From the NCBI GenBank assembly GCA_963718915.1, contig CAVRAI010000001.1, forward strand, positions 30,001-62,000: a stretch of DNA of 32,000 nt, read 5' to 3'. Every line of letters begins with the position of its first letter. Position 1 is the stretch's first letter. Under the pieces are notes generated by a model, which was given only the letters and a program-made list of their open reading frames with translations, ran no database searches and was not told where the DNA came from. The position numbers and the translations under genes are program-made. The stretch comes from an uncultured Chloroflexia bacterium (lineage in GTDB: Bacteria > Chloroflexota > Ktedonobacteria > Ktedonobacterales > JADMIN01). This document shows, in pieces, positions 12,073 through 31,053 of the stretch.

Positions 12073-12852
12073 CTAGCGCCCGATGGCGCGCATCAGCAGA
12101 ATCGAAAGCTCGAAGAGCACCGTGAAGCTGACGCCGATAATCACCGGGCTAAACGGATCCGCGCCCGGCGTGATGAAGCACGAGAGGAACCAGAGTCCAA
12201 AGAGGATGACCAGCCGCTTCTGCCGCAGCACCCGGCTATTGATGATGCCCACCACCGCCATGAAGGTCAGCACCAGCGGCAACTCGAAGACAATCGCGAA
12301 GGCCAGCAGGAAGTAGGTGACAAAGGTGAAGTAGCTATCGGCGTCGGTGAGCAGAATGAATCGGTCGCTGCCGAAGGTGACCAGCCAGTCAATTGGCCAA
12401 CGCAAGACGACAAAGCCAACGGTGATGCCGACAAAGAAGAGGCCGACTCCCAGCAGCGTAAACGGCAGCGCATACTTGCGTTCGCGGCGAGTCAGCGCGG
12501 GCGAAATGAAGGCCCAGAGCTGATAGAGAATGACCGGAGAGGCCACCATGATGCCAACGGCGATGCCGACCTTCAGCGCGACCATAAATGGCTCGCCGAT
12601 ATCGTGGGCCACCAGTTGGCCTTGTTCCGCGCCGGGCAGCTTGTTGGCGGCGGCGGGGAGGGGAATCAGCAGGAAGCCAATAATGCGATCCCAGAAGACG
12701 ATGCCCACAATCGAGAAGATCGCGACCGCGATCACCATTTTGATCATGCGGCCGCGTAGCTCTTCGAGATGCTCGATGAGCGTCATCGTACCGCCTTCAG
12801 GCTCCTCCTCGTCGGCAGCCTGATTGACTTCGTGCAGATGTTCCGCTGCCAT
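12073..12852 (-). CDS. tatC: Twin-arginine translocase subunit TatC
   Basis: LIEHLEELRGRMIK plus six TM helices with TatC-like spacing; GGGAGGGA RBS. Confidence 0.9.
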   Translation of the reverse strand: MAAEHLHEVNQAADEEEPEGGTMTLIEHLEELRGRMIKMVIAVAIFSIVGIVFWDRIIGFLLIPLPAAANKLPGAEQGQLVAHDIGEPFMVALKVGIAVGIMVASPVILYQLWAFISPALTRRERKYALPFTLLGVGLFFVGITVGFVVLRWPIDWLVTFGSDRFILLTDADSYFTFVTYFLLAFAIVFELPLVLTFMAVVGIINSRVLRQKRLVILFGLWFLSCFITPGADPFSPVIIGVSFTVLFELSILLMRAIGR

Positions 12853-17224: not shown

Positions 17225-17480
17225 TCATCAATGCTCATCCATTTGGGCGCACAAGAACAAGATGCCCGCTCTCTACGTCAAGTATAGTGGTGAGGCGCCT
17301 CTGAGCCATTTTGAGGAACCATACTGGCTACGAGTCGGCCCCGCCATGCTACGATCATAGTTCGGCAGAAAACAGGCGTAGTGCTACCGAAATAGACATA
17401 TCCGTCAGGCACGGTTTGTGCCAGCAGCCGTGCACAAGGCATATCTGCGACGTTTAAGGATATGGGGAGAACATAGTACC

Positions 17481-20051
17481 ATGGATGATGAGACGATGCG
17501 CTACGGTCCTCTTCGGGCAGGAGGCTCGATACCGCTTGCCATTGGCGCGCCTGATATCAGCCAGGAAGATACGATCATCTCCCGTGGTGTTACCACAGCC
17601 GACCTCTGGCGCGGGCGCGTTACGCGGCGGCTCCCACCACAGCGGTCACTCCCTCCATGGGCTGTTCCAGTTATTATCGCGGTCTTACTCGCCATCTTGC
17701 TGCCGAGCGTCCTGGCAGTCGCCTCGGTCTTCGAGGATTATTCGTCGCTCAAGAATTTGGGCGAGTCGGGCATGCGCCATCTGCTCACCGCTAAAGCCGA
17801 TCTCTCCGGCATACTGGGCGGCATCTCATCCAACAACTCCCTCTCCTCGCTGCTCAACGACAACGCGATGGGAGACGCTCCCTATACCTACTTTGTCCAG
17901 CGCCAGGGCGGAACAGCGAACCAGATTAACGTGACCATTCACCCCGCCTCGAATATGCCCAAGTCTGTCAAGACCAAGAGCTACAAGCAGACGCTTACGA
18001 CAAACACCGCGCTCACCCTCGGCGGCACGCCGCCAACAGCCGACACGGCGACACCTACGCCCACCCCGAAGCCCGGCGCCACCGCCACCGCGACCCCGTC
18101 GGGATCGGGTAACTCGGGCTTTTCCTTCGACCCAGCGGCCGTCAACCGTGCGGTTACCGAGCTGCATCTCGCGCAGAAGGACTTCCAGACACTACGCAAC
18201 AAACTGGCCAATCCCGACTGGGTGCTCTCACTCGCGCCCCGTGTGCCCGGCGTTGGCTCACAGGTCAACACCGCGACAACGCTGGCCAACATCGGCTATG
18301 ACGCGGCCTCGCTGGGGGTGGTGCTGGCCGACTCCGCGCAGCCGCTGATCGCCCGCCTGCACGCCGCGTCAGCGACTGGCACTGGCAATAGCGAGTTGAT
18401 TACCCAGAGCGATGTCGAATCACTGCAGGCTGGACTGGCGCAGGGCCAGATCTACTTCAACCGTATCGAGCAGGACCTGGCGGGTGTCCAGGTGAGCAGT
18501 CTGCCGATCAGCGCTTCGCAGAAGGCCCAGGTAAATGAAGTGATCGCGCTGATGCCGCGCTTCAAAGACCTTATTCCGCAGGCAAGCTACTACATTGGAC
18601 TGATCGGCTGGGTCTTGGGGGCAGACGCGCCGCGCCACTTCCTGGTGCAGACGCTGGATAACGGTGAGCTGCGCGGCACGGGTGGTTTCGAGGGATTCTA
18701 CAGCATCCTGACCATCGATCATGGCAAGGTGAGTCCGATTACGCTGCTGCGCGCCAACGATATTGACTATGGCAAGGCTGGCTGTGGCAAGGGCGTAAAT
18801 AATTGGTCTATCAACAATCCAGCGCCCGCGGCGTATCGCTCCTGGTGGCCATTCGCCAACTGGGGGCTGCGCGACGCCAACCTCAACTCGGATTTCCCGA
18901 CATCGGCAAAGCTCATCATGAACGCCTATAGCCATGAGGCGTGCACCAACGTGGATGGCGTTATCCAGTTCACGCCAGATGCCATCGCGAGCGTGCTGCG
19001 TGTGACCGGGCCGCTGACGGTGCCAGTTTTCAATGAGACCGTGACGGCGGACAACCTCGAGACCAAGATTCATTACTATGAGGAAAACGAAGCGGGCATT
19101 GCGAAGGCGCAGGCACTCTTCCACGACTACAATCCCGCCGACCGGAACAAGATTCGCACGAAATTCACCGAGGCTGTACAGCAGTTGCTCGAAACGCACG
19201 TCCGCCATCTGCCCAAGAGCGAGCTTATCCCGCTGGCGAAGCAGGCTCTGGCTGATCTACGCTCCAAAGACGTGCAGGTCTACGTCACCAATACCGGCGT
19301 CGAGTCTCAACTGCAAAAACTGCACGCTGATGGCGCAATCGATACAACGCCCAACGTCGACGGTCTCTTCGTCTCGCAGGTGAATGTCAGCATCTCGAAG
19401 GGATCGCCCTATGTCGCCACGACAATCAGCGACAATGTCACACTCGACACCAAGGGTGGCGCGACCCATCAACTGAACATCGCGCTCAAAAACAATGCGC
19501 AGTCTGGCGCCCAGGTGGCTGGATACACAACCTACCGTGACTACGTGCGCGTCTACGTGCCCGCGGGGGCGCGGCTGACGTATGCCGACGGGTTTGATAC
19601 TGGGAAGCTGATGTGCGTCGCCCCCACGCCGCCTCCAACCAATCCCAATCCGCCCAACCCACCGAATCCGCCCAATCCGCCCAATCCGCCCACGACCTCG
19701 GCCCCGACCTGTGGGTCGAATCCCTACCCTGACGGTGAACGTGTCTGCCCGAGCGGACAGTATCTGCCGCCGAAGGATCAGCAGGGTGGCTATATCGTGC
19801 AGCCCGGCAACAAGCCCGGCACGCTGAACAATGTCGGCTATCCACCCGCGACGAAGAGCGACGTCCCCGGCCTGACGATGTGGGGCGGCTATGTGGTGAT
19901 CCCGCAGTCCTGCACCGCCACGCTCTCGCTGAACTACTACGTGCCTAACGTGGTGAACCTCCAGGCGGTCGCCAGCGCGCAGGCGACGCCAACCACAACC
20001 ACCGCGCCGACCGGCGATATGCTCGATCCATGGCGGCGCGGGCTGGCGTAA
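17481..20051 (+). CDS. DUF4012 domain membrane-anchored protein with a C-terminal Pro-Asn repeat
   Basis: N-terminal TM (WAVPVIIAVLLAILLPSVLAV). DUF4012 signature FLVQTLDNGELRGTGGFEGFYSILTIDHGKV. ATG 17481 is preferred (GGGGAGA 10 nt upstream) over the ORF-track start at 17418. Confidence 0.7.
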   Translation: MDDETMRYGPLRAGGSIPLAIGAPDISQEDTIISRGVTTADLWRGRVTRRLPPQRSLPPWAVPVIIAVLLAILLPSVLAVASVFEDYSSLKNLGESGMRHLLTAKADLSGILGGISSNNSLSSLLNDNAMGDAPYTYFVQRQGGTANQINVTIHPASNMPKSVKTKSYKQTLTTNTALTLGGTPPTADTATPTPTPKPGATATATPSGSGNSGFSFDPAAVNRAVTELHLAQKDFQTLRNKLANPDWVLSLAPRVPGVGSQVNTATTLANIGYDAASLGVVLADSAQPLIARLHAASATGTGNSELITQSDVESLQAGLAQGQIYFNRIEQDLAGVQVSSLPISASQKAQVNEVIALMPRFKDLIPQASYYIGLIGWVLGADAPRHFLVQTLDNGELRGTGGFEGFYSILTIDHGKVSPITLLRANDIDYGKAGCGKGVNNWSINNPAPAAYRSWWPFANWGLRDANLNSDFPTSAKLIMNAYSHEACTNVDGVIQFTPDAIASVLRVTGPLTVPVFNETVTADNLETKIHYYEENEAGIAKAQALFHDYNPADRNKIRTKFTEAVQQLLETHVRHLPKSELIPLAKQALADLRSKDVQVYVTNTGVESQLQKLHADGAIDTTPNVDGLFVSQVNVSISKGSPYVATTISDNVTLDTKGGATHQLNIALKNNAQSGAQVAGYTTYRDYVRVYVPAGARLTYADGFDTGKLMCVAPTPPPTNPNPPNPPNPPNPPNPPTTSAPTCGSNPYPDGERVCPSGQYLPPKDQQGGYIVQPGNKPGTLNNVGYPPATKSDVPGLTMWGGYVVIPQSCTATLSLNYYVPNVVNLQAVASAQATPTTTTAPTGDMLDPWRRGLA
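19628..19693 (+). repeat. In-frame imperfect 9-bp tandem repeat encoding (PPN)n
   Basis: CCAATCCCAATCCGCCCAACCCACCGAATCCGCCCAATCCGCCCAATCCGCCC encodes PPPTNPNPPNPPNPPNPPNPP. Confidence 0.8.
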
Positions 20052-20143: not shown

Positions 20144-20733
20144 GTGGGCTTCAGCAACTCCCAACTGTCCTGCACGACCTGTACGAAGTCCGCGAGTGGC
20201 GGCATGCGACAGCAATTCTGGCGGCAGACTACCCCAATGAACTCGGCGATATCGTCGAGATACTTTCCGCGTTTCGGCTGTTGCGCAGCCACATAGAGGT
20301 TGGCGGCGGCAACAAATCGAAGGTCGCGGGTACCATCGACAAAGCGTTTCACGACCGTGGTTGGCAGGAACGAAGCTTCGATACCCGATTTGTGGTGGAC
20401 AAGGTTGAGTTGCCATCACCAACCCATAAAATCGACTGCTTCCGCAATGGCATTGGCATCGAGATAGAGTGGAATAACAAGGATCCGTTCTTTGATCGCG
20501 ATCTCAACAACTTTCGCCTGTTGTTCGAGTTGCGAGTCATAGCCGTTGGGATCATCATTACCCGATGTGACAACCTGCAAGAGATATTCGATGCATTAGG
20601 TAGAGGATGTTCGTACGGAGAATCCACGACGCATATGAGCAAACTGTTCCCGAAAGTTGAAGGCGGCGGTGCTGGTGGATGCCCATTGCTCGTCTTTGGC
20701 ATCAGCCAGAAGCTGTATGTAGATGGGGCATAG
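20144..20733 (+). CDS. BglII/BstYI/BamHI-fold type II restriction endonuclease, with an apparent frameshift at the start
   Basis: Catalytic pattern IDCFRNGIGIEIEW (D-x8-E-x-E) followed by VGIIITR, as in BstYI (D-x8-E-V-Q) and BglII. The N-terminus (LHDLYEVREW..PNELGDIVEIL) is also family-like. The conserved frame is open from 20140 but has no ATG/GTG/TTG before 20281. The SD-coupled GTG at 20144 is in another frame. Confidence 0.6.
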
Positions 20734-20735
20734 AT

Positions 20736-21425
20736 ATGGATGGCTCTAATCAAACACCAACGGCTGCGGAGGAGTTGCTGTCGCAGCAGCGAGGGTATTT
20801 TGGAACGATTCTGGCTGATCCGCCATGGCGGTTTCAGAACCGTACGGGAAAGATGGCCCCTGAGCATCACCGTCTATCACGGTATGAAACCATGACGATG
20901 GATGACATTTATGAGCTTCCTGTAGCGCAGTTGGCGTCGCCGAAGAGCCATCTGTATCTCTGGGTGCCTAACGCCCTTATTCTTGAAGGGCTGGAAACCA
21001 TGAAGCGCTGGGGATTTACCTATAAGACCCAGCTTATCTGGTATAAGGTGCGCAAAGATGGCGGGCCGGATGGCCGGGGCGTCGGTTTCTATTTTCGGAA
21101 TGTGACCGAGATCATTCTCTTTGGCGTCCGCGGCAACTTGCGAACATCGGCGCCAGGGCGGCGACAAGTCAACATCATCACGACCCGGAAGCGCGAACAC
21201 TCACGCAAGCCCGATGAGCTTTATGACGTCATCGAGCAGTGCAGCCCAGGCCCTTATCTCGAACTGTTCGCTCGCCATCCCCGACCGAACTGGTCACAGT
21301 GGGGCGATGAGATATTCGACGCTCCTCCAACCCAGCTCCGCCTCCCAGAGCTGACTCAGGAGCCAGGGAAGCCTCAGTTGCGGCTGGTCAAACCTCCGCG
21401 CGCGCCAAAGGTTGCCACATCGTAA
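20736..21425 (+). CDS. MT-A70 family N6-adenine DNA methyltransferase
   Basis: ILADPPWRF (DPPW catalytic motif), LYLWVPN, WGFTY..LIWYK, FYFRNVTEIILFGVRG, HSRKPDELY. ATG 20736 lies 3 nt after the endonuclease stop. Confidence 0.85.
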   Translation: MDGSNQTPTAAEELLSQQRGYFGTILADPPWRFQNRTGKMAPEHHRLSRYETMTMDDIYELPVAQLASPKSHLYLWVPNALILEGLETMKRWGFTYKTQLIWYKVRKDGGPDGRGVGFYFRNVTEIILFGVRGNLRTSAPGRRQVNIITTRKREHSRKPDELYDVIEQCSPGPYLELFARHPRPNWSQWGDEIFDAPPTQLRLPELTQEPGKPQLRLVKPPRAPKVATS

Positions 21426-21481: not shown

Positions 21482-22048
21482 TTAGTCGGTGTTGTCCATC
21501 CCCTGGCAGACCTCGAAGAGGAACCACGTGCGGCGCTCGGTCTGGTCGATGATGACTTCCAGCTCGCTGGCCGTCGCGTAGTCGCGATTCTTGTCACACA
21601 CCTCGTGGGCGGCGCGCTGCATCTTAGCTATGTGCGCGTTGTCCTCCATCAGGCGGCGCGCCATCTCGCCCGGCGCGACAAACTCATTGTTGTCATCCTC
21701 GATGGTCTGTAGCTCGCCGATGTGGCTGATGCTGCGGATCGTCGTGCCACCCACGCGCCGCACGCGCTCCGCCAGGATGTCTATTGAAGCCAATAGCGCG
21801 TCGGCATGATCGTCGAAGAGCAGGTGATACTCACGGAAATGCGAGCCGGAGAGATGCCAGTGGAAGTTCTTGGTCTTCACATATAGGGCAAATGCGTCCG
21901 CGATGAGCGGATTGAGCGCTTCGGTGATCGCCCGCGTCTCCTGAGCGGTCAGATCAGTTCTGGTGGCCAGTTGCTTCGCCGCGGGATACGCCTTCACATG
22001 GCCATTCGTGTGTGTTCGGGTCGCATGGTGCGTCGTCTGCGTCGTCAT
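21482..22048 (-). CDS. dps: Dps (DNA starvation/stationary-phase protection, ferritin-like) protein
   Basis: ALYVKTKNFHWHLSGSHFREYHLLFDDH and AERVRRVGGTTI motifs. Confidence 0.9.
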   Translation of the reverse strand: MTTQTTHHATRTHTNGHVKAYPAAKQLATRTDLTAQETRAITEALNPLIADAFALYVKTKNFHWHLSGSHFREYHLLFDDHADALLASIDILAERVRRVGGTTIRSISHIGELQTIEDDNNEFVAPGEMARRLMEDNAHIAKMQRAAHEVCDKNRDYATASELEVIIDQTERRTWFLFEVCQGMDNTD

Positions 22049-23179: not shown

Positions 23180-23275
23180 GACGCATACGCCTGTGTGGCT
23201 GGCCTGCCAGGGGCGCCCTTCCCAACATGAACACGCATGGCAGGCCAACGACAACGCCAAACAGGAGTAGTTCTC

Positions 23276-24622
23276 ATGACTTCCACACGCTCATCGTCAA
23301 CCTCAGCGCCATCTAGCGGACGTATCCGCTCCGTCGAGGTTGCCGCGCACGTTGGCCAGCGCATCCAGATCGCGGGCTGGCTGCACGCGGTGCGTCGGCT
23401 CGGCGGCATTAGTTTTCTCATCCTGCGCGACGGCTGGGGTATCGTTCAGGTCGTCGCCGCCAGCGATGAAGAACTGGCCCCGCTCCGCGAAGCACAGGCT
23501 GGCCCCGAAAGTGTCTTGCTGGTCGAGGGCGCTGTAGCCACCGCCAGCCAGGCTCCCGGCGGTATCGAACTGCACGAGCCGCACATCACCGTGCTTACCG
23601 CCGTCGCCGAGACGCCACCCGTCACCCTTGGCAAGCGCGAGTTGAAGGCCAATCTGACCACGCTGCTCGACGAAGCGGTAATCGCCAACCGCCATCCCAC
23701 GCGGCGAGCTATCTTCCGGCTGGGCGCCAGCGCGATGGCCAGCTTCCGCGAGACGCTCAGCGCGCGCGGCTTCACCGAGATCCAGTCGCCTAAACTGGTC
23801 GAATCGGCCACCGAGGGCGGCGCCAACGTCTTCGCGCTGGACTACTTTGGCCGCCCCGCCTACCTGGCGCAGAGTCCGCAGTTCTACAAGCAGATCATGG
23901 TCGGCGTCTTCGAGCGCGTCTTCGAGGTCGGCCCGGTCTTCCGCGCCGAGCCACACGACACCACCCGCCACATCAACGAATACGTCAGCCTGGATATGGA
24001 GATGGGCTTCATCGAGAACCACTTCACCATCATGGCGGTTGCCCGTGAGGCGCTGGCGGCGATGATGGAGCGGTTTCGCGCGGCCAACGCCGCCGAGCTT
24101 GTGTTGCTGGGCGTCACAATGCCGGAGGTTCCCGCCGAGATACCGCATATCCATTTCGCCGAGGCGCAGGAACTGATTTTTCAGCGGCATGGGGTGGATG
24201 TACGCGGCGAGCCAGACCTCTCGCCGCAAGACGAGCGCTGGCTGGGCGAATGGGCGCGCGCCGAGCATGGCAGCGACTTCGTCTTCGTCACCGGCTACCC
24301 GATGCGCAAGCGCCCCTTCTATACTCATCCCGATTCCGCGCGTCCGGAATACTCCAACTCAGCAGACCTGCTCTTCCGCGGGACGGAGTTGATGACTGGC
24401 GGGCAGCGGCTGCATCGCTACGATGACTATCTGGCGGCGCTGGCCGAGCGACACATCTCGCCTGAGCCATTCCGCGACTACCTGGAGGCGTTCCGCTATG
24501 GCATGCCGCCCCACGGTGGTTTCGCCATCGGATTGGAGCGCCTGCTGATGCAGCTCACTGGGCTGCCCTCGGTCAAGCTGGCGACGCTCTTCCCGCGCGA
24601 CCTGACCCGGCTGAGGCCGTAG
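23276..24622 (+). CDS. aspS: Aspartyl-tRNA synthetase, short archaeal/eukaryal-type (no GAD insertion)
   Basis: OB-fold N-terminus (IQIAGWLHAVRRLGGISFLILRDGWG). Class II motif 2 FRAEPHDTTRHINEYVSLDMEM and motif 3 GGFAIGLERLLM. ~448 aa from ATG 23276 (AGGAG RBS). Confidence 0.9.
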   Translation: MTSTRSSSTSAPSSGRIRSVEVAAHVGQRIQIAGWLHAVRRLGGISFLILRDGWGIVQVVAASDEELAPLREAQAGPESVLLVEGAVATASQAPGGIELHEPHITVLTAVAETPPVTLGKRELKANLTTLLDEAVIANRHPTRRAIFRLGASAMASFRETLSARGFTEIQSPKLVESATEGGANVFALDYFGRPAYLAQSPQFYKQIMVGVFERVFEVGPVFRAEPHDTTRHINEYVSLDMEMGFIENHFTIMAVAREALAAMMERFRAANAAELVLLGVTMPEVPAEIPHIHFAEAQELIFQRHGVDVRGEPDLSPQDERWLGEWARAEHGSDFVFVTGYPMRKRPFYTHPDSARPEYSNSADLLFRGTELMTGGQRLHRYDDYLAALAERHISPEPFRDYLEAFRYGMPPHGGFAIGLERLLMQLTGLPSVKLATLFPRDLTRLRP

Positions 24623-24701
24623 GGAAATTCATACCCCCCCGATGCGGAGAAGGGCCGCAGGCGTTATGGGCAGTGATGGGAGAACCGTTCCATATCTGGC
24701 G

Positions 24702-24724
24702 CCCCTCTCTCTGTGGGAGAGGGG
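24702..24724. repeat. CCCCTC/GAGGGG hairpin element (member of a dispersed family)
   Basis: CCCCTCTC (24702-24709) / GAGAGGGG (24717-24724) with a 7-nt loop, followed by CTGGGGGTGA. Related elements are at 21433-21457 and, in degenerate form, 23085-23122. Confidence 0.6.
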
Positions 24725-24736
24725 CTGGGGGTGATG

Positions 24737-24979
24737 TCAGCGCAGCGTCGCCCAGATATGCGGCCCGGAGGACACGGCATCCTCGCCGACGACATGGAAG
24801 CCGTGGCGCTGGTAGACGCCGATGTTTGCCGCATTCTCCGTTTCCAGGTAGCAGGGTAGACCTGCGGCATCCGCCCGCGCCAGCATTGGCCGCAGCAGGC
24901 GCGTGGCGATCCCCTGACGCTGAAGCGCAGGCGAGAAGCACGGCAATGCGGCGCGCATCCGGCATCTCAGCGCGCGCAA
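24737..24979 (-). pseudogene. Truncated GNAT N-acetyltransferase (C-terminal half only)
   Basis: SPALQRQGIATRLLRPMLARADAAGLPCYLETENAANIGVYQRHGFHVVGE is the GNAT acetyl-CoA motif A plus the C-terminal strands. The N-terminal ~70-80 aa of the fold are absent, and the upstream ATG (24999) is in a different frame. Confidence 0.5.
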
Positions 24980-25115
24980 GACCTGTGAGATGATCGCTCT
25001 CCATCGCGGCCACTTCTTAATTCTCTCCGCTATTCTCTCCGCTTATCACCGCCTCATCTACTCTGCATGATACCGCCGACGCGGGATAAACCTGTCAGCG
25101 AGTGAGCCAAGAAAA

Positions 25116-25133
25116 ATCAGGTATATACCTGAT
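25116..25133. promoter_or_regulatory. Perfect 18-bp palindrome plus an extra half-site (candidate operator)
   Basis: ATCAGGTATATACCTGAT, with a further ATCAGGTA half-site at 25150-25157. Confidence 0.4.
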
Positions 25134-25351
25134 AGCCTCCCCCCGGCGAATCAGGTACACTTTTAGGTGTGCCAGTAGCAGAACAGCCATCCGATGCGCT
25201 CGCGGGCTGCCTCTTTTTGGCTCGCCGCGCCCGCGCCAGGCATTGGCTGCCGCTCCGATTTTTCTCCGCGCTGCATCCTCGTGCAGTCGCCGTTCGTCTT
25301 GAACAGCAACAGAATACGCGAATCGGCTGGTAGCGGAGAGCGAGAAGGGCG

Positions 25352-25380
25352 TTGCGCGCGCCCGGCGAAACTGGTATGAT
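25352..25380 (+). promoter_or_regulatory. Candidate promoter for the Rieske/cytochrome b operon
   Basis: TTGCGC (25352-25357), 17-nt spacer, extended -10 TGgTATGAT (25372-25380). This would leave a ~230-nt leader. Confidence 0.3.
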
Positions 25381-25611
25381 AGCCTGTGCCTTTCCAGCAT
25401 TGCTGGATATCAGCCGTTATCTGGCTGGTATCTTTGGGCGTTGGCATGGCACGCTCGTCCAAGTCGGACTAAAATAGCGCGAAGTATTGCAATCGTCACA
25501 GGTATTTCGTTATCGTCACCCGGCTGAGTGGGAAGCTCCGTCGAGCCTTTCCGGTTCGGCCCAGCTACTTCATCCTGAAGCCGCGCGCTGGCGCGACCGT
25601 GAGGAGGCAGT

Positions 25612-26439
25612 GTGAGCACAATGAATCGGGGTCTGCTGGATCGGGTCTGGAACTCCGTCACGGAAAGCCAGATCTGGCGGTCCATCTTCCGGCACGGCTA
25701 TCCAGATACCCCCCTCAATCAGTCACTGGTGATGATGGGGAATGTCTTCCTCCACCTGCACCCGGTCAAGGTCAGCCGCAAGGCGATGAAGATCACCTAC
25801 ACCTGGTGTCTGGGGGGGCTCTCCTTCTTCCTCTTTCTGGTTTTGACGATCACGGGCGTCTTTCTGATGTTCTACTTCGTGCCCGAGCAGAGCGTCGCCT
25901 ACTCCGATATCCAGCAGATCAACAGCGCTATTATGTTTGGCCAGCTGGTGCGCAACATGCATCGCTGGGCGGCCCACCTGATGGTGGTGACGGTCACATT
26001 GCACATGATTCGCGTGTTTTACCACGGCGCCTATAAGCCGCCACGCGAGTTCAACTGGGTCATCGGTGTGGTGCTCTTCCTGACAACCCTGCTGCTCAGC
26101 TTCACTGGCTATCTGCTACCCTGGGATCAGATTGGGTACTGGGCGATCACCGTCGGCTCGAACATGGCCAGCTACGCGCCACTGCTTGGCGCGCAGGTCC
26201 ACAACGTCCTCACCGGCCAGCCGGTGGGAGTTGGCCAGCCGACGCTCATTCGCTTCTATACACTGCATGTCATTGGCCTGCCACTTGTCGGCGCGGTGTT
26301 GATGGCAGTTCACTTCTGGCGCATCCGCAAGGATGGTGGAGAAGCGGGTCCGCCGCCGCCGTCGAAGCGCGAGATCGAGGCAGCGCGCGCCGAGCAGGCG
26401 AGGGCCGCGCAGCCGACACACGCAGGCTCACTCAACTAG
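25612..26439 (+). CDS. Cytochrome b, N-terminal four-helix (b6/PetB-like) subunit
   Basis: GQLVRNMHRWAAHLMVVTVTLHMIRVF (heme-ligand His pairs) and SFTGYLLPWDQIGYWA; GAGGAGG upstream. Confidence 0.9.
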   Translation: MSTMNRGLLDRVWNSVTESQIWRSIFRHGYPDTPLNQSLVMMGNVFLHLHPVKVSRKAMKITYTWCLGGLSFFLFLVLTITGVFLMFYFVPEQSVAYSDIQQINSAIMFGQLVRNMHRWAAHLMVVTVTLHMIRVFYHGAYKPPREFNWVIGVVLFLTTLLLSFTGYLLPWDQIGYWAITVGSNMASYAPLLGAQVHNVLTGQPVGVGQPTLIRFYTLHVIGLPLVGAVLMAVHFWRIRKDGGEAGPPPPSKREIEAARAEQARAAQPTHAGSLN

Positions 26440-26505
26440 TCGCGTATCAGCCCGGAGCCGTCTGCCCCACACCGGGTCAGGCGGCACATGCTGAAGGAGA
26501 AACCG

Positions 26506-27069
26506 ATGGCAACAACCGAGCCACGCCCGACTCGCACCGAGAATAGCGCAAATGGGAATGGGGCAGCCGGAGCGACCCAGAAACGGTATCGCACCCTGGC
26601 AGTGGTCAAGCAGGAGTCAGTCACCAGGATTGAGAAACAGCTCGAAGATTCGGTCTTCGTCTGGCCGCATCTACTGGTGCGCGAATTCCTCGCCGCGGTC
26701 ATCATGACGATGGTGCTGACGCTCGTCTCGATCTCCATCAACGCGCCGCTACGCGACCATGCGAACCCGAACCTGACGCCAAACCCGGCAAAGGCGCCAT
26801 GGTATTTCCTGGGTCTGCAAGAGATTCTGCACTACTTCCCGCCGACGGTGGCAGGCGTGCTGATTCCGGGCTTTGTGCTGGTGGGGCTGGCAATCCTGCC
26901 CTATGTTGACCGTAACCCCAGCCGCGCCTTCGAGGATCGCAAGCTCTCCATCGCGCTCTTTACGATTTTCGCGGTCTTCTTTGCCGTCGTGACACTCGCC
27001 GGCAGTTTCTTCCGCGGTTCTGGCTGGCAGTGGATCTGGCCCTGGCAAGGTGTCTTCTTCGACCTGTAA
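26506..27069 (+). CDS. Cytochrome b C-terminal / subunit IV (PetD-like)
   Basis: NPAKAPWYFLGLQEILHYFP (equivalent of the PEWY motif) plus three TM helices. ATG 26506 is preferred (AAGGAG RBS) over 26488. Confidence 0.85.
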   Translation: MATTEPRPTRTENSANGNGAAGATQKRYRTLAVVKQESVTRIEKQLEDSVFVWPHLLVREFLAAVIMTMVLTLVSISINAPLRDHANPNLTPNPAKAPWYFLGLQEILHYFPPTVAGVLIPGFVLVGLAILPYVDRNPSRAFEDRKLSIALFTIFAVFFAVVTLAGSFFRGSGWQWIWPWQGVFFDL

Positions 27070-27163: not shown

Positions 27164-27868
27164 ATGAGCACTAAGTACGATGATACGACACGGACACCAC
27201 AGGAATATGAGGTGCTGACCGGCGGCGGCGCGGAAGCGGCGCAGGTCGCCAAGCGCGGCATCAGTCGGCGCCAGATGCTGCGTCGCGCCACCGGCCTGAG
27301 CCTCGGCATCGTCGGCGCGGCGGCTGGTCTCGGCTCGCTGATGATGCTCTATCCCAACCTGGAAGGGCAGTTTGGCGCGCCAATCACGCTCAGGAACAAG
27401 GCGGTCTATATCCCCGCCGAGCAGAAGGACATGGCGCTCGATCAGAAGGGCATGTTCTACGAACAGAGCGGGAAGTCCTACATCATGCACCTCAAGTCTG
27501 GCGGCACCACACAGTTCCTCCAGTCTGGCGTCTCGCTGGCCAATTCAATGGAGGCGCAGGACTGGGTCAAAGATGGCGATACCTACTGGCTGGCGCTTTA
27601 TCAGGTCTGCGTGCATCTGGGCTGCAAGGTGCCATTCCGCGACGACTGCAACAGCTTCAAGTGCCCGTGCCATGGCTCCCACTACAACATCGATGGCGAG
27701 TATATCGATGGCCCGGCGCCGCGCAGTCTGGACCGCTTTACGATGACATTTGATAGCAGCGGCAACGTCGTCGTGGATACCGGCAAGCTGAATCAGCACG
27801 TCGAGCGCCCTGATGTGGGGACGCGCGTACTGCGGTTGCCTTATGTGCCGGTCTGTTCGGCGCAGTAA
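27164..27868 (+). CDS. Rieske [2Fe-2S] subunit with Tat signal
   Basis: CVHLGC ... CPCHGSHY cluster boxes. Twin-arginine signal [22 protein letters not shown]. Confidence 0.9.
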
Positions 27869-27934
27869 TTCTCTGAAGCGTCGTCAAAGAGTTGTCGAAG
27901 AGTCGTCAGACGCCTAGACATGAGGTCACTATAG

Positions 27935-28954
27935 ATGCAGAATAGTCGTAATCCGGGGCTGTTCGCCATAGCGATTGGGGTCGCGCTGGCGATACTCTTC
28001 GCGCTGCTGGGCCTTACGGGGATACTTGAGGGGCGGTTGGCCTTTGGGCTGGCGGCCATCTGTGTGATCGTGCCGATCCTGCTTTACATCTTCTATTCGC
28101 GTGGCAGCGCCATTACGCGCAGCGGCTATGCGGCACTCATCCTCACACTGGGAATCGGCCTGATCATCCCTCTGCTCATGGTGGGCCAGCAACAGGCGCG
28201 GGCCGACCGGACCGCTGCCCTTTACGATCTGTCCCTCCAACGCGGCGCGGCGCTCTTTGGCCAGTATTGCGCGACCTGCCATGGCTTCCAGGGGCAGGGT
28301 ATCGCCGGGCCAAAGCTCAATAACAATCCCGATGTGAACAAGTTTACCACCGACGACCTGACACGCATCATCTCGGCTGGCATCCCGGCCGATCCGGGAA
28401 ATCCAACAGTGCTGGCTATGCCCTCGTGGAGCAATCGCTACGGCGGCTCGCTCACCGATGATGATATCGCCTATCTGGTGGCGTTTATCCGCTCGTCGGA
28501 TCCGGCTTATCTCAAGCAGAATAATCTGCCCACGACCAATGGCTTCGGCTATGTGCTGGGCACGCTGACGAACCCGACCCAGATCGCCGATTACAATAAT
28601 CAGCTGAAAACGGGCAGCAAACCGCCAGCGAACCAGTTCACCGATATGTCCAGCCAGCAGGCGGTCACGATACCGATTGAAGATACCACGAGTAATCCAT
28701 CGGGCTTCGATTTCACGCCGCCGAACATCATCATCAAGGTGGGTACGACGGTCACGTGGGAAAACAAGACGGCACAGCCGCACAACGTCTTCCCGCGCCA
28801 GGGAAGCACTCCACCGGATGCGACCTTCAAGTCGCCACCGGTCATCAATGCGCAGACAGGTACGTATTCGTTCACGTTTACCAAGGCTGGGGAGTATCCA
28901 TACTACTGCGCCATTCACCCGGCAATGCTGGGATGGGTGTCGGTGGTGGCCTAG
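27935..28954 (+). CDS. Membrane-anchored fusion of a mono-heme cytochrome c and a type-1 copper cupredoxin
   Basis: Three N-terminal TM helices. The heme c site is CATCH, with a distal AMPSW Met. The C-terminal cupredoxin has ligands PHNVF ... YYCAIHPAM (C-x2-H-x2-M, amicyanin-like spacing). Confidence 0.8.
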   Translation: MQNSRNPGLFAIAIGVALAILFALLGLTGILEGRLAFGLAAICVIVPILLYIFYSRGSAITRSGYAALILTLGIGLIIPLLMVGQQQARADRTAALYDLSLQRGAALFGQYCATCHGFQGQGIAGPKLNNNPDVNKFTTDDLTRIISAGIPADPGNPTVLAMPSWSNRYGGSLTDDDIAYLVAFIRSSDPAYLKQNNLPTTNGFGYVLGTLTNPTQIADYNNQLKTGSKPPANQFTDMSSQQAVTIPIEDTTSNPSGFDFTPPNIIIKVGTTVTWENKTAQPHNVFPRQGSTPPDATFKSPPVINAQTGTYSFTFTKAGEYPYYCAIHPAMLGWVSVVA

Positions 28955-29151
28955 AATCACGGCGGCGAGTCGTTCAGTAGTAACATAGCGTGCAGTGCAG
29001 AGCGTATTTCGATATCGCGTGTTGGTGTTGTCTGGTGGGTATCTATCTGGATATCGCTGGGCGAGACCAACACTGCCCGCGAAGGGGATCGCGCGGCGTT
29101 GGGCGCGGACCGGGGCAATCGGGAATCATTTTCTGAAAGGGACTGTGACCC

Positions 29152-31053
29152 ATGCAATTAACGGCGGCGAACTCCGTGCGCGAACACGAAAAGCCGATGT
29201 CCTGGCCGAGGGCAATCGTCATCGCGGTCGGCTTCTTCTTCGTGACGGCTATCCTGCTTGGTCAGATTCCAAGCTTCGTCTTTGTCGTCTCGACCCTCTC
29301 GACCCTGGCACGCATGGAGCAGAGCTTCCTCGCGATGGGTCTGCTGGCGCTCGGCATCGGCCTGATGTGCTTTACGATCTCGTTCCTCTACGACACGAAA
29401 CCGGTGCTCCCGTGGCCGCTCTTCTTCGTGGGCGGCGCGGCGCTGGCGGTTGTCGGCCTCTTTTTCCTCTACCAGGTGCGCGTCGGCATTCATGCGAGCG
29501 GCTTCTTCGGCGCTGGCTGGTCAGAGTATCTCCCCGACAAATTCGTGGATGTCAAGACCGGGACGACGACATTCTGGCCGTCGGATAACCCCGGCTATCT
29601 CTTCCATCCCGCATGGTTCCAGCCACAAAGCATCGACCTCTCGGCCATCGGCATCATCGCGCTCTTGTCTGGCCTCGGCATTGCCTCGGTAGCTGCTCTC
29701 AACCCGCTGGTGCTCTCAGGCAGACTGCTCGGCCCCATGCGCGATCTGCTGGTGCGGCTGAGCATCGGGCTGGCCATCGTGATCGCGGCGCTCTGGCTGA
29801 TGATCAATACCTTCTCCAATATTGTGCCCAACGGTGGCGACCACGCGGGCATCATCAACATGATGCTGTTCGTCGGGCTGATCCTGGCGCTCTTTGGGCT
29901 GGAGGTCTGGCTATTGCCGGTCATGACAGCCAACCGCCAGCAGTTCATGCCCGCCGTCTACCTGCATGGCGTGGTTGGACTGATTGGCATGGTGGCTGTG
30001 CCGCTGCTGATCATCTGGGCGATACTGTATCCCGTCGTGAATCTGATTCATAACCTGGATAGCACCCAGTTCTTCGTGCAGTGCTCGCAGAAGACCGAGA
30101 TTCCTGCCTCCTGCACCTTCACGCCATTCAGTGGCTACATCATCTGCGCCATCGTCTTCACCAACCTGTTCGCAATCCTGGTCGCGGGCCTGTATTTCTG
30201 GAGCACCCGCCGCAACACCGTGATACTCGGCTGCACGATAGCGTTGATCTTTGTAGCCATTGCGCCGCTGGTCATCCACCTGGATCAATTTACGCAGATC
30301 CCGATTGGCATCTTGCTGGCGCTGGGCATTGTCGTGCTGGCGTTCATCTATACCTGGGCGACCCAGCGGGAATTCGCGCCGACCGCCCCGCAGCAACTCG
30401 GCTGCGCCGGGCAGTGGCTGGTGTTGGGGACGCTGTTGCTTTTCTTGATGATGGGCTTCGCGTTCTTCTCGCTGCCAACCTACTACGAGCTGGAATCCGG
30501 CCTGATGTTCTTCTATCAGCCGGGTGCTGGCGGACTGCATGACGCCTGGTGGATGCTGCTGCTGATGGGCGGCCTGGGCCTCTATCAACTGGTCGTGCTG
30601 ATGCGCCGCCGCTACCATCCGATGGGCAACTGGCGTAAGTTTGGCCTCTGGGTCAATGCGATTGCGCTGGCGCTGATGGTGACGGCGGGAATCAACGGCT
30701 TCCACGCGGATGTGCTGCAGAAGGGCATCGACGCGATGGATGGCTCGCACGCCATGTTTGTCACGGCCATCTGTTTCGCGATTGTCGGCATCGCGGCCTG
30801 CGCCATCGCGGCGGTACGCACGCGGTCTATTCCGTGGCTGGTGGCGATTCTGGTGAGCGTGCTCATCGGACTTGCGCTCGCCTTCGTCGCCTACAATCTG
30901 CCGAATCCGTATCCTGAACTGGTCATCTTTGGGTTCGCGCTGACGATGCTGGGCGCGTTCGCCTACACCGCCGCTGGCCCCGACCCGGAGGATGTCTACC
31001 TCAACGGCTACGAGACCAGCGAAGGCGCCGTCACAGCGGCCACACGCTCCTGA
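29152..31053 (+). CDS. Large polytopic integral membrane protein (unknown function)
   Basis: 633 aa, roughly 16-18 hydrophobic helices, no recognised motif. It has the same orientation as the bc-type operon and lies ~200 nt downstream. Confidence 0.6.
   Translation: MQLTAANSVREHEKPMSWPRAIVIAVGFFFVTAILLGQIPSFVFVVSTLSTLARMEQSFLAMGLLALGIGLMCFTISFLYDTKPVLPWPLFFVGGAALAVVGLFFLYQVRVGIHASGFFGAGWSEYLPDKFVDVKTGTTTFWPSDNPGYLFHPAWFQPQSIDLSAIGIIALLSGLGIASVAALNPLVLSGRLLGPMRDLLVRLSIGLAIVIAALWLMINTFSNIVPNGGDHAGIINMMLFVGLILALFGLEVWLLPVMTANRQQFMPAVYLHGVVGLIGMVAVPLLIIWAILYPVVNLIHNLDSTQFFVQCSQKTEIPASCTFTPFSGYIICAIVFTNLFAILVAGLYFWSTRRNTVILGCTIALIFVAIAPLVIHLDQFTQIPIGILLALGIVVLAFIYTWATQREFAPTAPQQLGCAGQWLVLGTLLLFLMMGFAFFSLPTYYELESGLMFFYQPGAGGLHDAWWMLLLMGGLGLYQLVVLMRRRYHPMGNWRKFGLWVNAIALALMVTAGINGFHADVLQKGIDAMDGSHAMFVTAICFAIVGIAACAIAAVRTRSIPWLVAILVSVLIGLALAFVAYNLPNPYPELVIFGFALTMLGAFAYTAAGPDPEDVYLNGYETSEGAVTAATRS

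Follow-up and report, generated by a model that had tools for sequence, protein, structure and literature searches.

The cytochrome b and Rieske core of quinol-oxidizing complexes is conserved, and new subunits for accepting electrons from the Rieske cluster have arisen repeatedly, namely cytochrome c1, cytochrome f, a di-haem cytochrome c and a cytochrome c fused to subunit IV. The locus described here raises the question of what takes this place in one of the Ktedonobacteria, a soil bacterium from an uncultured lineage of the Ktedonobacterales (Chloroflexota). We analysed a stretch of 32,000 nucleotides of its DNA (the window). An earlier reading of the sequence alone had proposed that the fourth gene of a Rieske/cytochrome b operon in the window encodes a fusion of a cytochrome c with an amicyanin-like cupredoxin, that this protein sits where other complexes have cytochrome c1, cytochrome f or a di-haem cytochrome c, and that a tethered heme-to-copper relay would build the soluble carrier into the complex.

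Open reading frames, Pfam profiles and motifs confirm that the gene is the fourth, after those of a b6-like protein, a subunit IV-like protein and a Rieske protein, all on the plus strand. The b6-like subunit (25612..26439, 275 residues; Pfam Cytochrome_B, 1.9e-46; NCBIfam cytochrome b6 subfamily, 1.1e-61) represents the N-terminal half (four helices) of a split cytochrome b, contains the His pairs H117/H131 and H219/H234 and carries the haem ci cysteine in a CxGG motif, present as WCLGG. The subunit IV-like protein (26488..27069, 193 residues; Pfam Cytochrom_B_C, 6.9e-13) has three transmembrane (TM) helices and the Qo motif APWY, which also occurs in five related loci. The [2Fe-2S] Rieske subunit (27164..27868, 234 residues; Pfam Rieske, 2.8e-9; NCBIfam Rieske models, 1e-17) contains the motifs CVHLGC and CPCHGSHY behind a twin-arginine signal anchor, SRRQML. 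The Ser and Tyr residues of CPCHGSHY accompany a higher cluster potential in bc1 Rieske proteins. Taken together, the four-helix cytochrome b, the CxGG motif, the separate three-helix subunit IV and the Rieske protein with its Tat signal identify a b6-type Rieske/cytochrome b complex. The cytochrome b of K. racemifer was earlier grouped with sequences that have a split cytochrome b and the haem ci cysteine (PMC3509893).

We also considered ExtP and ExtQ of the Geobacter Ext system of selenite and tellurite reduction as identities for the two cytochrome b subunits. The b6-like subunit scores barely above the cytb_ExtP cutoff (298.6 versus 290 bits), but the ExtQ score of 56.4 bits is far from the required 150, the ext genomic context fails, and the assignment was rejected. 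No ext-like multihaem genes were found near the operon.

The fusion gene itself (27935..28954 including the stop codon, plus strand) starts with an ATG about 9 nt downstream of a Shine-Dalgarno-like GAGG and encodes a membrane-anchored cytochrome c/type-1 cupredoxin of 339 residues. No terminator-like site was found between it and the neighbouring genes. A shadow ORF on the minus strand (27929-28960) was rejected as an artefact of the high GC content. The three N-terminal TM helices of the original description (residues 1-87, 27935..28195) are seen both in the hydropathy profile, with hydrophobic segments at residues 9-27, 39-57 and 66-84, and in the AlphaFold2 model, with helices at 7-28, 33-56 and 59-116. 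The N-terminus is predicted to lie inside and both C-terminal redox domains outside, which would leave R5, R56 and R62 in cytoplasmic stretches.

Residues 95-190 (28217..28504) form the cytochrome c domain. Cytochrom_C (PF00034) matches residues 102-188 with an E-value of 1.2e-12 (49.5 bits; cutoff 21.3), and PF13442 scores 42.6 bits against a cutoff of 27. Direct translation places the haem motif C112-A-T-C115-H116 (CATCH) at 28268-28282 and the axial Met162, within AMPSW, at 28415-28429. With its profile score above threshold, a CxxCH near the N-terminus of the domain and a distal Met, the domain is that of a class I c-type cytochrome, as had been supposed. It is followed by a mostly helical module (residues 191-240, 28505..28654) that is conserved among homologues (SSDPxY..NGFxYV..LTNPTQIA..GSKPP) and is modelled with a pLDDT mostly of 90-98 and helices at 190-195, 203-210 and 214-226. 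According to this confident model, the link between the two redox domains would be an ordered helical module and not a floppy tether.

The C-terminal domain (residues 241-339, 28655..28951) is an amicyanin-like type-1 copper domain. Copper-bind (PF00127) matches residues 255-337 with an E-value of 2e-12 (47.8 bits; cutoff 21.2), the best match in a PDB sequence search is amicyanin (1.7e-13), and Foldseek aligns the domain with amicyanin and plastocyanin with a probability of 1.00 and a TMt of 0.7-0.8. By direct translation, the putative copper ligand H283 lies within PHNVF (28778-28792), and C325, H328 and M331 lie within CAIHPAM (28907-28927), a C-x2-H-x2-M loop. The profile match, the Greek-key beta-sandwich fold and the conserved His...Cys-His-Met set are those of type-1 cupredoxins of the plastocyanin/azurin family, so that this part of the sequence-only reading also stands. 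The model of the whole protein has a pLDDT of 88.2 and a pTM of 0.63, a value that leaves the relative placement of the domains uncertain. When it was compared by Foldseek with the PDB, the cupredoxin domain was matched alone, and the two-domain arrangement was absent from all entries.

We found 285 homologues of the fusion protein, the best 120 of which all have the two-domain architecture (54-96% identity); hence the gene is not a chance ORF. CxxCH, MPxW and CxxHxxM are present in all 119 full-length close homologues, and C112, C115, H116 and M162 are invariant within this haem-containing clade. In an alignment of 95 sequences that spans two clades and 28-83% identity, H283, C325, H328 and M331 never vary, nor do C112 and C115; the copper loop is retained in 237 of the 238 full-length homologues. 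Poor conservation of the copper ligands in homologues, which would have spoken against a copper domain, was thus not observed.

The surroundings of the gene are equally stable. Every informative locus, at 31-96% identity, has the order b6, IV, Rieske, fusion and an orphan membrane protein of ~490-633 residues (complete in the window, L001, L002, L004-L006, L010, L011 and L012-L015). Two shortened loci are consistent with it, as the contig of L003 begins past the N-terminus of cytochrome b and that of L017 stops past the fusion gene. The fusion gene follows the Rieske gene in every examined locus that extends upstream, and the cofactor motifs of cytochrome b, subunit IV and the Rieske protein are intact in the loci checked. 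Where named, the related loci all belong to Ktedonobacteria; the taxonomy of the clades is taken from the names on members other than GCA_037025425.1, GCA_037025105.1 and GCA_027459705.1. A contig search with the fusion protein as the single query returned six true relatives, all of them Ktedonobacteria/Chloroflexia metagenome-assembled genomes, and three matches to the cupredoxin only (L007-L009), the last of which is from Thermomicrobiales. Of 1.84 billion representatives searched, the 150 best matches include only seven full-length ones of ~340-360 residues, and weaker cytochrome c/cupredoxin fusions may exist below that rank. Among 18 sampled long multi-stretch matches none combined cytochrome c with cupredoxin, all being either poly-cytochrome c or poly-cupredoxin.

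Does the protein belong to one of the known families of Rieske-accepting subunits? It matches neither cytochrome c1 (PF02167) nor cytochrome f in Pfam, and scores 24.7 against a cutoff of 200 with the model of actinobacterial QcrC (NF050122, bc1_QcrC_actin). QcrC, the di-haem cytochrome cc of the III2IV2 supercomplex, is nevertheless a useful comparison. Like the fusion, it is membrane-anchored and has two redox domains in series, and its C-terminal haem domain is weakly similar to the cytochrome c domain of the fusion (7e1v_O, E-value 4e-5). However, its second centre is a haem c where the fusion has a type-1 copper, the fusion is anchored by three N-terminal helices, and the partner of QcrC is a long QcrB whereas that of the fusion is a split, b6-like cytochrome b with haem ci. 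The fusion has the gene position of c1, f and QcrC and probably their role, without membership in any of these families.

The nearest relatives of the anchor and c module are found elsewhere, in tandem cytochromes c with three to five haems whose genes lie directly 3' of a Rieske gene. Residues 66-202 of the fusion, comprising the third TM helix and the c domain, are 33% identical to the first module of P0155, including MPxW..YGGxLT..FIR. P0155, a TM-anchored tri-haem cytochrome c, and P0125, a penta-haem cytochrome c, are assigned to related b6-type complexes, and in both cases the gene comes immediately behind that of a Rieske protein. As comparison systems, the heliobacterial di-haem cytochrome c and Bacillus QcrC were grouped with them. 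In P0155 and P0125 the C-terminal extension consists of further cytochrome c domains (three to five haems in total), whereas in Ktedonobacteria it is a cupredoxin. From these alignments, the c domain is likely to be the module that faces the Rieske protein, and the C-terminal part a variable extension for electron output. Because the position behind the Rieske gene is kept and the c module is homologous to multi-haem subunits encoded at that position, the reading of the protein as an equivalent of c1 or f is supported, and with it the position assigned to the gene at the outset.

The same comparison modifies another early claim, that the gene order is unusual. It is, beside petCA/petBD and qcrABC. 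The IV, Rieske, c part, at least, is found again in the two short relatives that were taken from outside the family, so that the order is probably a trait of the clade and not a quirk of one operon. As far as sequence comparison goes, the gene order and the Rieske-facing c module are probably common to related complexes, and the cupredoxin is the lineage-specific part.

On the strength of domain identity, ligand conservation, gene order and the homology of the c module to Rieske-adjacent c subunits, we think it reasonably probable that the fusion serves a b6-type quinol oxidoreductase as its high-potential subunit, equivalent to c1 or f, with a tethered haem-to-copper relay to a terminal oxidase. 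The scheme that we infer has both metal sites occupied, a defined order of the two centres and a stable association of the protein with the complex. Three TM helices would anchor the fusion in the membrane so that both redox domains face the outer side. Quinol would be oxidized at Qo, passing one electron to the Rieske cluster, which in turn would reduce the His/Met-ligated haem c in the membrane-proximal domain. From there the electron may move to the C-terminal cupredoxin with its type-1 copper, and on to the terminal acceptor. The cupredoxin would thereby replace a soluble or second-domain carrier such as plastocyanin, cytochrome c or the second haem of actinobacterial QcrC. Ktedonobacteria are monoderm, and a built-in cupredoxin carrier would suit cells that lack a closed periplasm. 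As terminal acceptor we consider CuA of an aa3-type oxidase most likely, which is a guess; the window holds no oxidase genes, and the aa3-type oxidase genes coxBAC have been reported in Ktedonobacteria (PMC13374853).

A related arrangement exists in complex IV. Subunit II of caa3-type oxidases also combines a membrane-anchored cupredoxin fold with a class I cytochrome c and builds the carrier into a respiratory complex; it differs in its binuclear CuA, in the order of cupredoxin then cytochrome c and in belonging to complex IV and not complex III.

The two redox domains could instead serve as a tethered mobile shuttle that is co-transcribed with the complex and diffuses laterally to several acceptors, the aa3 oxidase and possibly others, much like the anchored carriers cytochrome c550 of Bacillus and cytochrome cy of Rhodobacter. 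Anchored carriers are common in monoderm bacteria, amicyanin- and plastocyanin-type cupredoxins are known as mobile carriers, no further c-type subunit is present in the complex, and the domain arrangement is modelled with moderate confidence at the pTM quoted above. However, a shuttle would leave the Rieske cluster without any acceptor inside the complex, relatives have a homologous c module at the same position after the Rieske gene, and three conserved TM helices plus a conserved, structured interdomain module exceed what a simple anchor needs. We therefore regard the shuttle as unlikely.

The copper domain calls for a comparison of its own. It has the fold and the His-Cys-His-Met set in common with amicyanin and plastocyanin, and its short C-x2-H-x2-M loop is that of amicyanin. 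These two proteins are soluble carriers, whereas the cupredoxin of the fusion is not a free protein. It is not a true amicyanin (TIGR02657, 59.2 versus 110.2 bits), the window has no mau-like genes, and the resemblance is one of loop and fold only; nor is it a true plastocyanin (TIGR02656, 43.3 versus 87.85 bits). Descent from auracyanin, a known carrier of Chloroflexus, was rejected as auracyanin is absent from the PDB sequence matches.

Amicyanin, the closest solved relative of the domain, accepts electrons from methylamine dehydrogenase, which brings up the reverse direction, with the fusion receiving electrons from a dehydrogenase outside the cytoplasm, or from some other donor of high potential, for an energy-driven reduction of quinone. 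According to Kao and Hunte, no complex of the APWY clade had been characterised and the clade is associated with possible reverse operation (PMC4122944). Yet neither the window nor the related loci contain a dehydrogenase gene (mau or similar), the neighbours being housekeeping genes, and the match to the amicyanin equivalog model falls far short of the cutoff. Furthermore, Ktedonobacteria reportedly respire aerobically and have aa3 and bd oxidases (PMC13374853), and such organisms need a forward-running complex III to feed aa3. Reverse operation is accordingly very improbable in our estimate.

A sister clade bears most directly on the relay. It has an equivalent gene at an equivalent locus and includes cultured Ktedonobacteraceae (Thermosporothrix, Dictyobacter, Tengunoibacter and Ktedonosporobacter). 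None of its 119 sequences has CxxCH; 117 have Cx3C[Y/F/W] instead, and MPxW, with the axial Met, occurs in none, whereas the copper loop is kept in 118. Hence, copper is the constant redox centre. Both domains do share one polypeptide in the window, as first described, but the relay from haem to copper is not obligatory since the haem motif has disappeared from a sister clade in which the copper site persists; copper alone may suffice, and haem before copper is a proposed order.

One could go further and take copper as the working centre throughout, reduced directly by the Rieske protein, with the haem accessory or disappearing and the c domain a docking scaffold or one-electron store. Direct transfer from Rieske to copper has been proposed for the archaeal sulfocyanin and halocyanin systems. 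The sister clade agrees with this, as does one of its loci (L015), in which the b, IV and Rieske motifs are intact despite the missing haem motif, and the copper ligands are the sole cofactor ligands invariant across both clades. In the clade of the window, however, the haem ligands are kept as strictly as the copper ligands, which argues for a functional haem, and the homologous module of the outgroup carries the haem motif in a membrane-proximal position. For the window, a copper-only route is in our view quite unlikely, and we retain the two-centre relay.

Copper proteins are encoded with or within Rieske/cytochrome b modules that lead to an oxidase also in archaea, namely in the Sulfolobus SoxM supercomplex (sulfocyanin SoxE) and in the haloarchaeal halocyanin cluster (PMC3509893, PMC4122944), the latter with a split cytochrome b as in the operon of the window. 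The archaeal copper proteins are polypeptides of their own that carry no cytochrome c domain, in hosts without c-type cytochromes, whereas the bacterial fusion has its cupredoxin C-terminal to a haem c domain. It is the haem-less sister clade that most resembles the archaeal arrangement. We tentatively suggest, with somewhat less than even confidence, that Ktedonobacteria still show the two stages of a change from haem to copper in the high-potential arm of a bacterial complex III, the uncultured lineage of the window having a two-centre relay and the sister lineage having discarded the haem. Cultured strains exist for the haem-less form.

The operon continues with a fifth gene (29152..31053, plus strand), whose position is conserved in related loci. 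It encodes a protein of 633 residues with 16 predicted TM segments that matches no family in Pfam or NCBIfam and no fold in the PDB (best E-value 0.55), and is modelled with a pLDDT of 80.4 and a pTM of 0.77. All of its 218 homologues are annotated as 'hypothetical', and every organism name given for them is from Ktedonobacterales. A role in cytochrome c maturation is unlikely as the haem-less clade retains the gene. An accessory subunit or assembly factor is possible, and the protein could be a further, structurally novel subunit of the complex.

In a search of the openly accessible literature, we found no paper that describes the fusion subunit or pairs Ktedonobacteria with a cupredoxin. The fusion would be another solution to the problem of accepting electrons from a conserved core, and the first found here with blue copper and the acceptor haem in one polypeptide. 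It would offer a natural pair of haem and copper centres, fixed genetically, in which electron transfer can be studied. Complexes with the APWY Qo motif and the orphan 16-TM protein also come into view as structural targets. For the Ktedonobacteria, the proposed role suggests a way in which monoderm bacteria may do without a soluble carrier between complex III and the oxidase. If the replacement took place as suggested, the sister lineage would have a bacterial Rieske/cytochrome b complex without a c-type cytochrome, in which the Rieske cluster passes electrons directly to a tethered blue copper, a route so far associated only with archaea, and the haem-less and haem-containing clades together would provide a case in which the replacement of a respiratory metal cofactor can be tested.

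The fusion gene belongs to a run of five consecutive plus-strand ORFs that occupies 25.6-31.1 kb of the window. Together with their profile matches, these ORFs bear out the gene order that had been read from the sequence alone: a cytochrome b6-like protein (25612-26439, 275 aa; Pfam Cytochrome_B, 1.9e-46), a subunit IV-like protein (26488-27069, 193 aa; Cytochrom_B_C, 6.9e-13), a Rieske protein (27164-27868, 234 aa; 2.8e-9) and the 339-aa cytochrome c/cupredoxin fusion protein (27935-28954; Pfam Cytochrom_C and Copper-bind). The fusion gene ATG is preceded by a GAGG about 9 nt upstream, and no terminator-like site was found between this gene and its neighbours. The three core subunits carry the hallmarks of a b6-type complex. 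The cytochrome b6-like protein has the haem ci cysteine (WCLGG) and His pairs spaced by 13 and 14 residues, subunit IV has APWY (within KAPWYF) instead of PEWY or PDWY as its Qo motif, and the Rieske protein contains CVHLGC, CPCHGSHY and a twin-arginine signal. The five related loci that were checked all share APWY and retain the cofactor motifs of b, IV and Rieske intact. The APWY clade has been described as biochemically uncharacterised (Kao and Hunte 2014, PMC4122944).

The cytochrome b6-like protein barely passed the NCBIfam equivalog for ExtP (298.6 versus a cutoff of 290 bits). ExtP comes from a Geobacter selenite/tellurite reduction operon. The window subunit IV fails the model for ExtQ, the partner of ExtP (56.4 versus 150 bits), there are no ext genes nearby, and we rejected this identity. 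Automatic annotation would probably mislabel the protein as ExtP.

Both redox domains of the fusion protein exceed their Pfam cutoffs, as expected for the heme c and C-terminal blue-copper domains proposed in the sequence-only reading. Cytochrom_C covers residues 102-188 (49.5 bits, cutoff 21.3) and Copper-bind residues 255-337 (47.8 bits, cutoff 21.2). The proposed haem c motifs CATCH and AMPSW translate exactly at 28268-28282 and 28415-28429, the copper motifs PHNVF and CAIHPAM at 28778-28792 and 28907-28927, and hydropathy segments at residues 9-27, 39-57 and 66-84 agree with the three N-terminal TM helices. Arginines are found at the N-terminus and in the TM2-TM3 loop; therefore, the N-terminus is expected to be inside and both redox domains outside. 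The protein fails the curated thresholds of the c1, f, QcrC, amicyanin and plastocyanin families. Its closest solved relative by sequence is amicyanin (1.7e-13), which has the same C-x2-H-x2-M loop, and the C-terminal haem domain of actinobacterial QcrC weakly resembles its c domain (4e-5). An AlphaFold2 model built with a 95-sequence alignment (mean pLDDT 88.2, pTM 0.63) starts with three N-terminal helices, followed by a c domain that is also helical, an interdomain segment of well-ordered helices and a beta-sandwich. A Foldseek comparison of the whole model with the PDB gave matches in the cupredoxin part only (amicyanin, plastocyanin, pseudoazurin and Nitrosopumilus purple cupredoxin; TMt 0.6-0.8) and no entry sharing the two-domain arrangement.

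Of the 285 homologues retrieved from 5.8 billion proteins, the 120 best have lengths of 258-360 aa (320-360 in nearly all cases), and every one contains both PF00034 and PF00127. Named members among these 120 are Ktedonobacterales MAGs, names being attached to a minority of the sequences in this survey. Database names in both clades of the family (see below) are generic, for example 'plastocyanin/mono/diheme cytochrome c family protein', 'c-type cytochrome' or 'cupredoxin domain-containing protein'. C112, C115, H116, M162, H283, C325, H328 and M331 are invariant in a 19-member haem-clade alignment (55-83% identity), in which the interdomain segment is also strongly conserved. The gene neighbourhood is equally stable. 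The order b6, IV, Rieske, fusion and a membrane protein of about 614-633 aa recurs in the genome loci L001, L002 and L004-L006 and in a complete Ktedonobacterales chromosome of 5.07 Mb (L010; L011 comes from a second source), as well as with more distant fusion members (L013/L014, 48% identity; L012, 36-38%). Two further loci follow it as far as their contigs extend: L003 starts after the cytochrome b N-terminus, and L017 (36-38%) ends just after the fusion gene.

When 1.84 billion cluster representatives were searched exhaustively with HMMER, only seven of the best 150 matches were full-length single-stretch relatives. In three of these (P0149, P0153 and P0191; 31-34% identity) Cx3C[Y/F] replaces CxxCH and the axial Met is absent, with all four copper ligands retained. 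The same holds for the orthologous fourth gene of cultured Ktedonobacteraceae (L015, 5602-6627; P0149, P0350, P0363, P0365, P0394 and P0404), whose product has two TM helices versus three in the window and an extra conserved Cys pair at the cupredoxin start. P0149 as a query gave 652 matches at E <= 1e-10, the best 120 of which include the cultured Ktedonobacteraceae Tengunoibacter tsumagoiensis, Dictyobacter aurantiacus, D. arantiisoli, Ktedonosporobacter rubrisoli and Thermosporothrix hazakensis; the proteins of these strains bear no annotation beyond cupredoxin or blue copper protein. In a motif census of the best full-length members, CxxCH, MPxW and the C-terminal copper loop CxxHxxM are present in 119/119 haem-clade proteins and Cx3C[YFW] in none, whereas the corresponding counts in the haem-less clade are 0/119, 0/119, 118/119 and 117/119. 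The one haem-less member without the copper loop, P0410 (on a 1.45-Mb contig), has a divergent C-terminus suggestive of a frameshift, whether through a sequencing error or because the gene is a pseudogene. A neighbour-joining tree with midpoint root separates the two clades. The haem-less protein also occupies the fourth position: in L015, genes for b6, IV and Rieske are followed by the haem-less gene, a 490-aa homologue of the membrane protein and the same glycosyltransferase that lies downstream in L010 and L012.

Six cofactor residues are invariant across 95 sequences from both clades: both cysteines of the former haem motif plus the four copper ligands. Hence, copper is the constant redox centre of the subunit. 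The sequence-only reading was to be refuted by non-conserved copper ligands in homologues, and it clearly survives this test. In the haem-less clade, the c domain looks degenerate and seems to serve as a scaffold. The haem-less clade motivates another explanation, in which copper is the real acceptor and the haem is accessory; we consider this improbable.

The best non-family matches to TM3 and the c domain (among 150) are TM-anchored proteins made of tandem class I cytochromes c, three to five haems in each. The genes of tri-haem P0155 (372 aa; L018, 892-2010) and penta-haem P0125 (609 aa; L019, 1005-2834) lie directly downstream of a Rieske gene, in the latter case with a subunit IV-like gene further upstream; the Rieske protein beside P0155 is 45% identical to that of the window in the cluster-binding region. 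In both, the first module is a homologue of the anchor and c domain in the window (P0155 versus residues 66-202: 33% identity, including the signature MPxW..YGGxLT..FIR), and the two proteins look like multi-haem 'wire' versions of the fusion subunit. Judging from these two short contigs, related complexes probably share the gene order IV, Rieske, c and an anchored c module that faces the Rieske protein and carries a variable output extension at its C-terminus; this extension is more cytochrome c in the multi-haem relatives but a cupredoxin in the Ktedonobacteria. This outgroup comparison indicates that the subunit originally bound haem and that the Ktedonobacteraceae-type clade lost this ability.

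With its domains, ligands, conservation, synteny and module homology established, the fusion protein is probably, though far from certainly, the equivalent of cytochrome c1 or f. Quinol would be oxidised at Qo with transfer of an electron to the Rieske cluster, which would reduce the haem c; the haem would pass the electron to the type-1 Cu of the cupredoxin and the copper to a terminal acceptor, most likely CuA of an aa3 oxidase. We infer the metal loading, the order of the centres, a stable association with the complex and the identity of the acceptor. Ktedonobacteria have been reported to encode an aa3 oxidase (PMC13374853). Functional parallels are the di-haem QcrC of actinobacteria, in which soluble cytochrome c is absent (PMC4505504), and archaeal Rieske/b systems with sulfocyanin or halocyanin (PMC4122944; PMC3509893). 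That the protein instead acts as a laterally mobile tethered shuttle is unlikely, albeit slightly less so than a purely accessory haem. Work in the reverse or input direction has been suggested for APWY complexes in general, but the context of the window operon lends it no support, and we regard it as very improbable.

The fifth gene (29152-31053, plus strand) encodes a 633-aa polytopic membrane protein with 16 predicted TM segments and no Pfam or NCBIfam family match. All organisms named among its 218 homologues are Ktedonobacterales. It is found at the same position in both clades (490-633 aa), has invariant Cys, His and Trp residues, and its confident AlphaFold2 model (pLDDT 80.4, pTM 0.77) has no fold match in the PDB (best E 0.55). 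A role as a new accessory subunit or as an assembly factor is possible. Upstream of the cytochrome b gene, about 1 kb (24623-25611) separates the operon from an aspartyl/asparaginyl-type tRNA synthetase gene (23237-24622) and contains no convincing long ORF; an 80-aa minus-strand ORF (24737-24979) resembles the C-terminal portion of a GNAT acetyltransferase (..YLETENAANIGVYQRHGFHVVGE..) and is perhaps the remnant of a gene or a gene called from the wrong start. Other window genes encode a DUF4012 protein (17418-20051, plus; 877 aa), an MT-A70 family methyltransferase (20679-21425, plus) and a Dps/ferritin-like protein (21482-22048, minus); no respiratory or copper-handling genes besides the operon were seen within the window. 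TatC (12073-12852, minus; Pfam 4.8e-55), a component of the Tat export pathway that the Rieske subunit would need, is encoded about 13 kb upstream, probably by coincidence.

Rieske/b complexes whose high-potential subunits are specific to a lineage are well known, and so are archaeal versions with blue copper carriers. Ktedonobacter cytochrome b has been placed among split-b, ci-Cys sequences as 'group A2' (PMC3509893), in 'subfamily G' (PMC5600118) and in the 'APWY clade' (PMC4122944), with no mention of the fourth gene in these three papers. The literature searched yielded no account of a cytochrome c/cupredoxin subunit and no paper joining Ktedonobacteria with a cupredoxin. Neither a subunit that covalently joins haem c to type-1 Cu nor its haem-less derivative is among the well-known forms.
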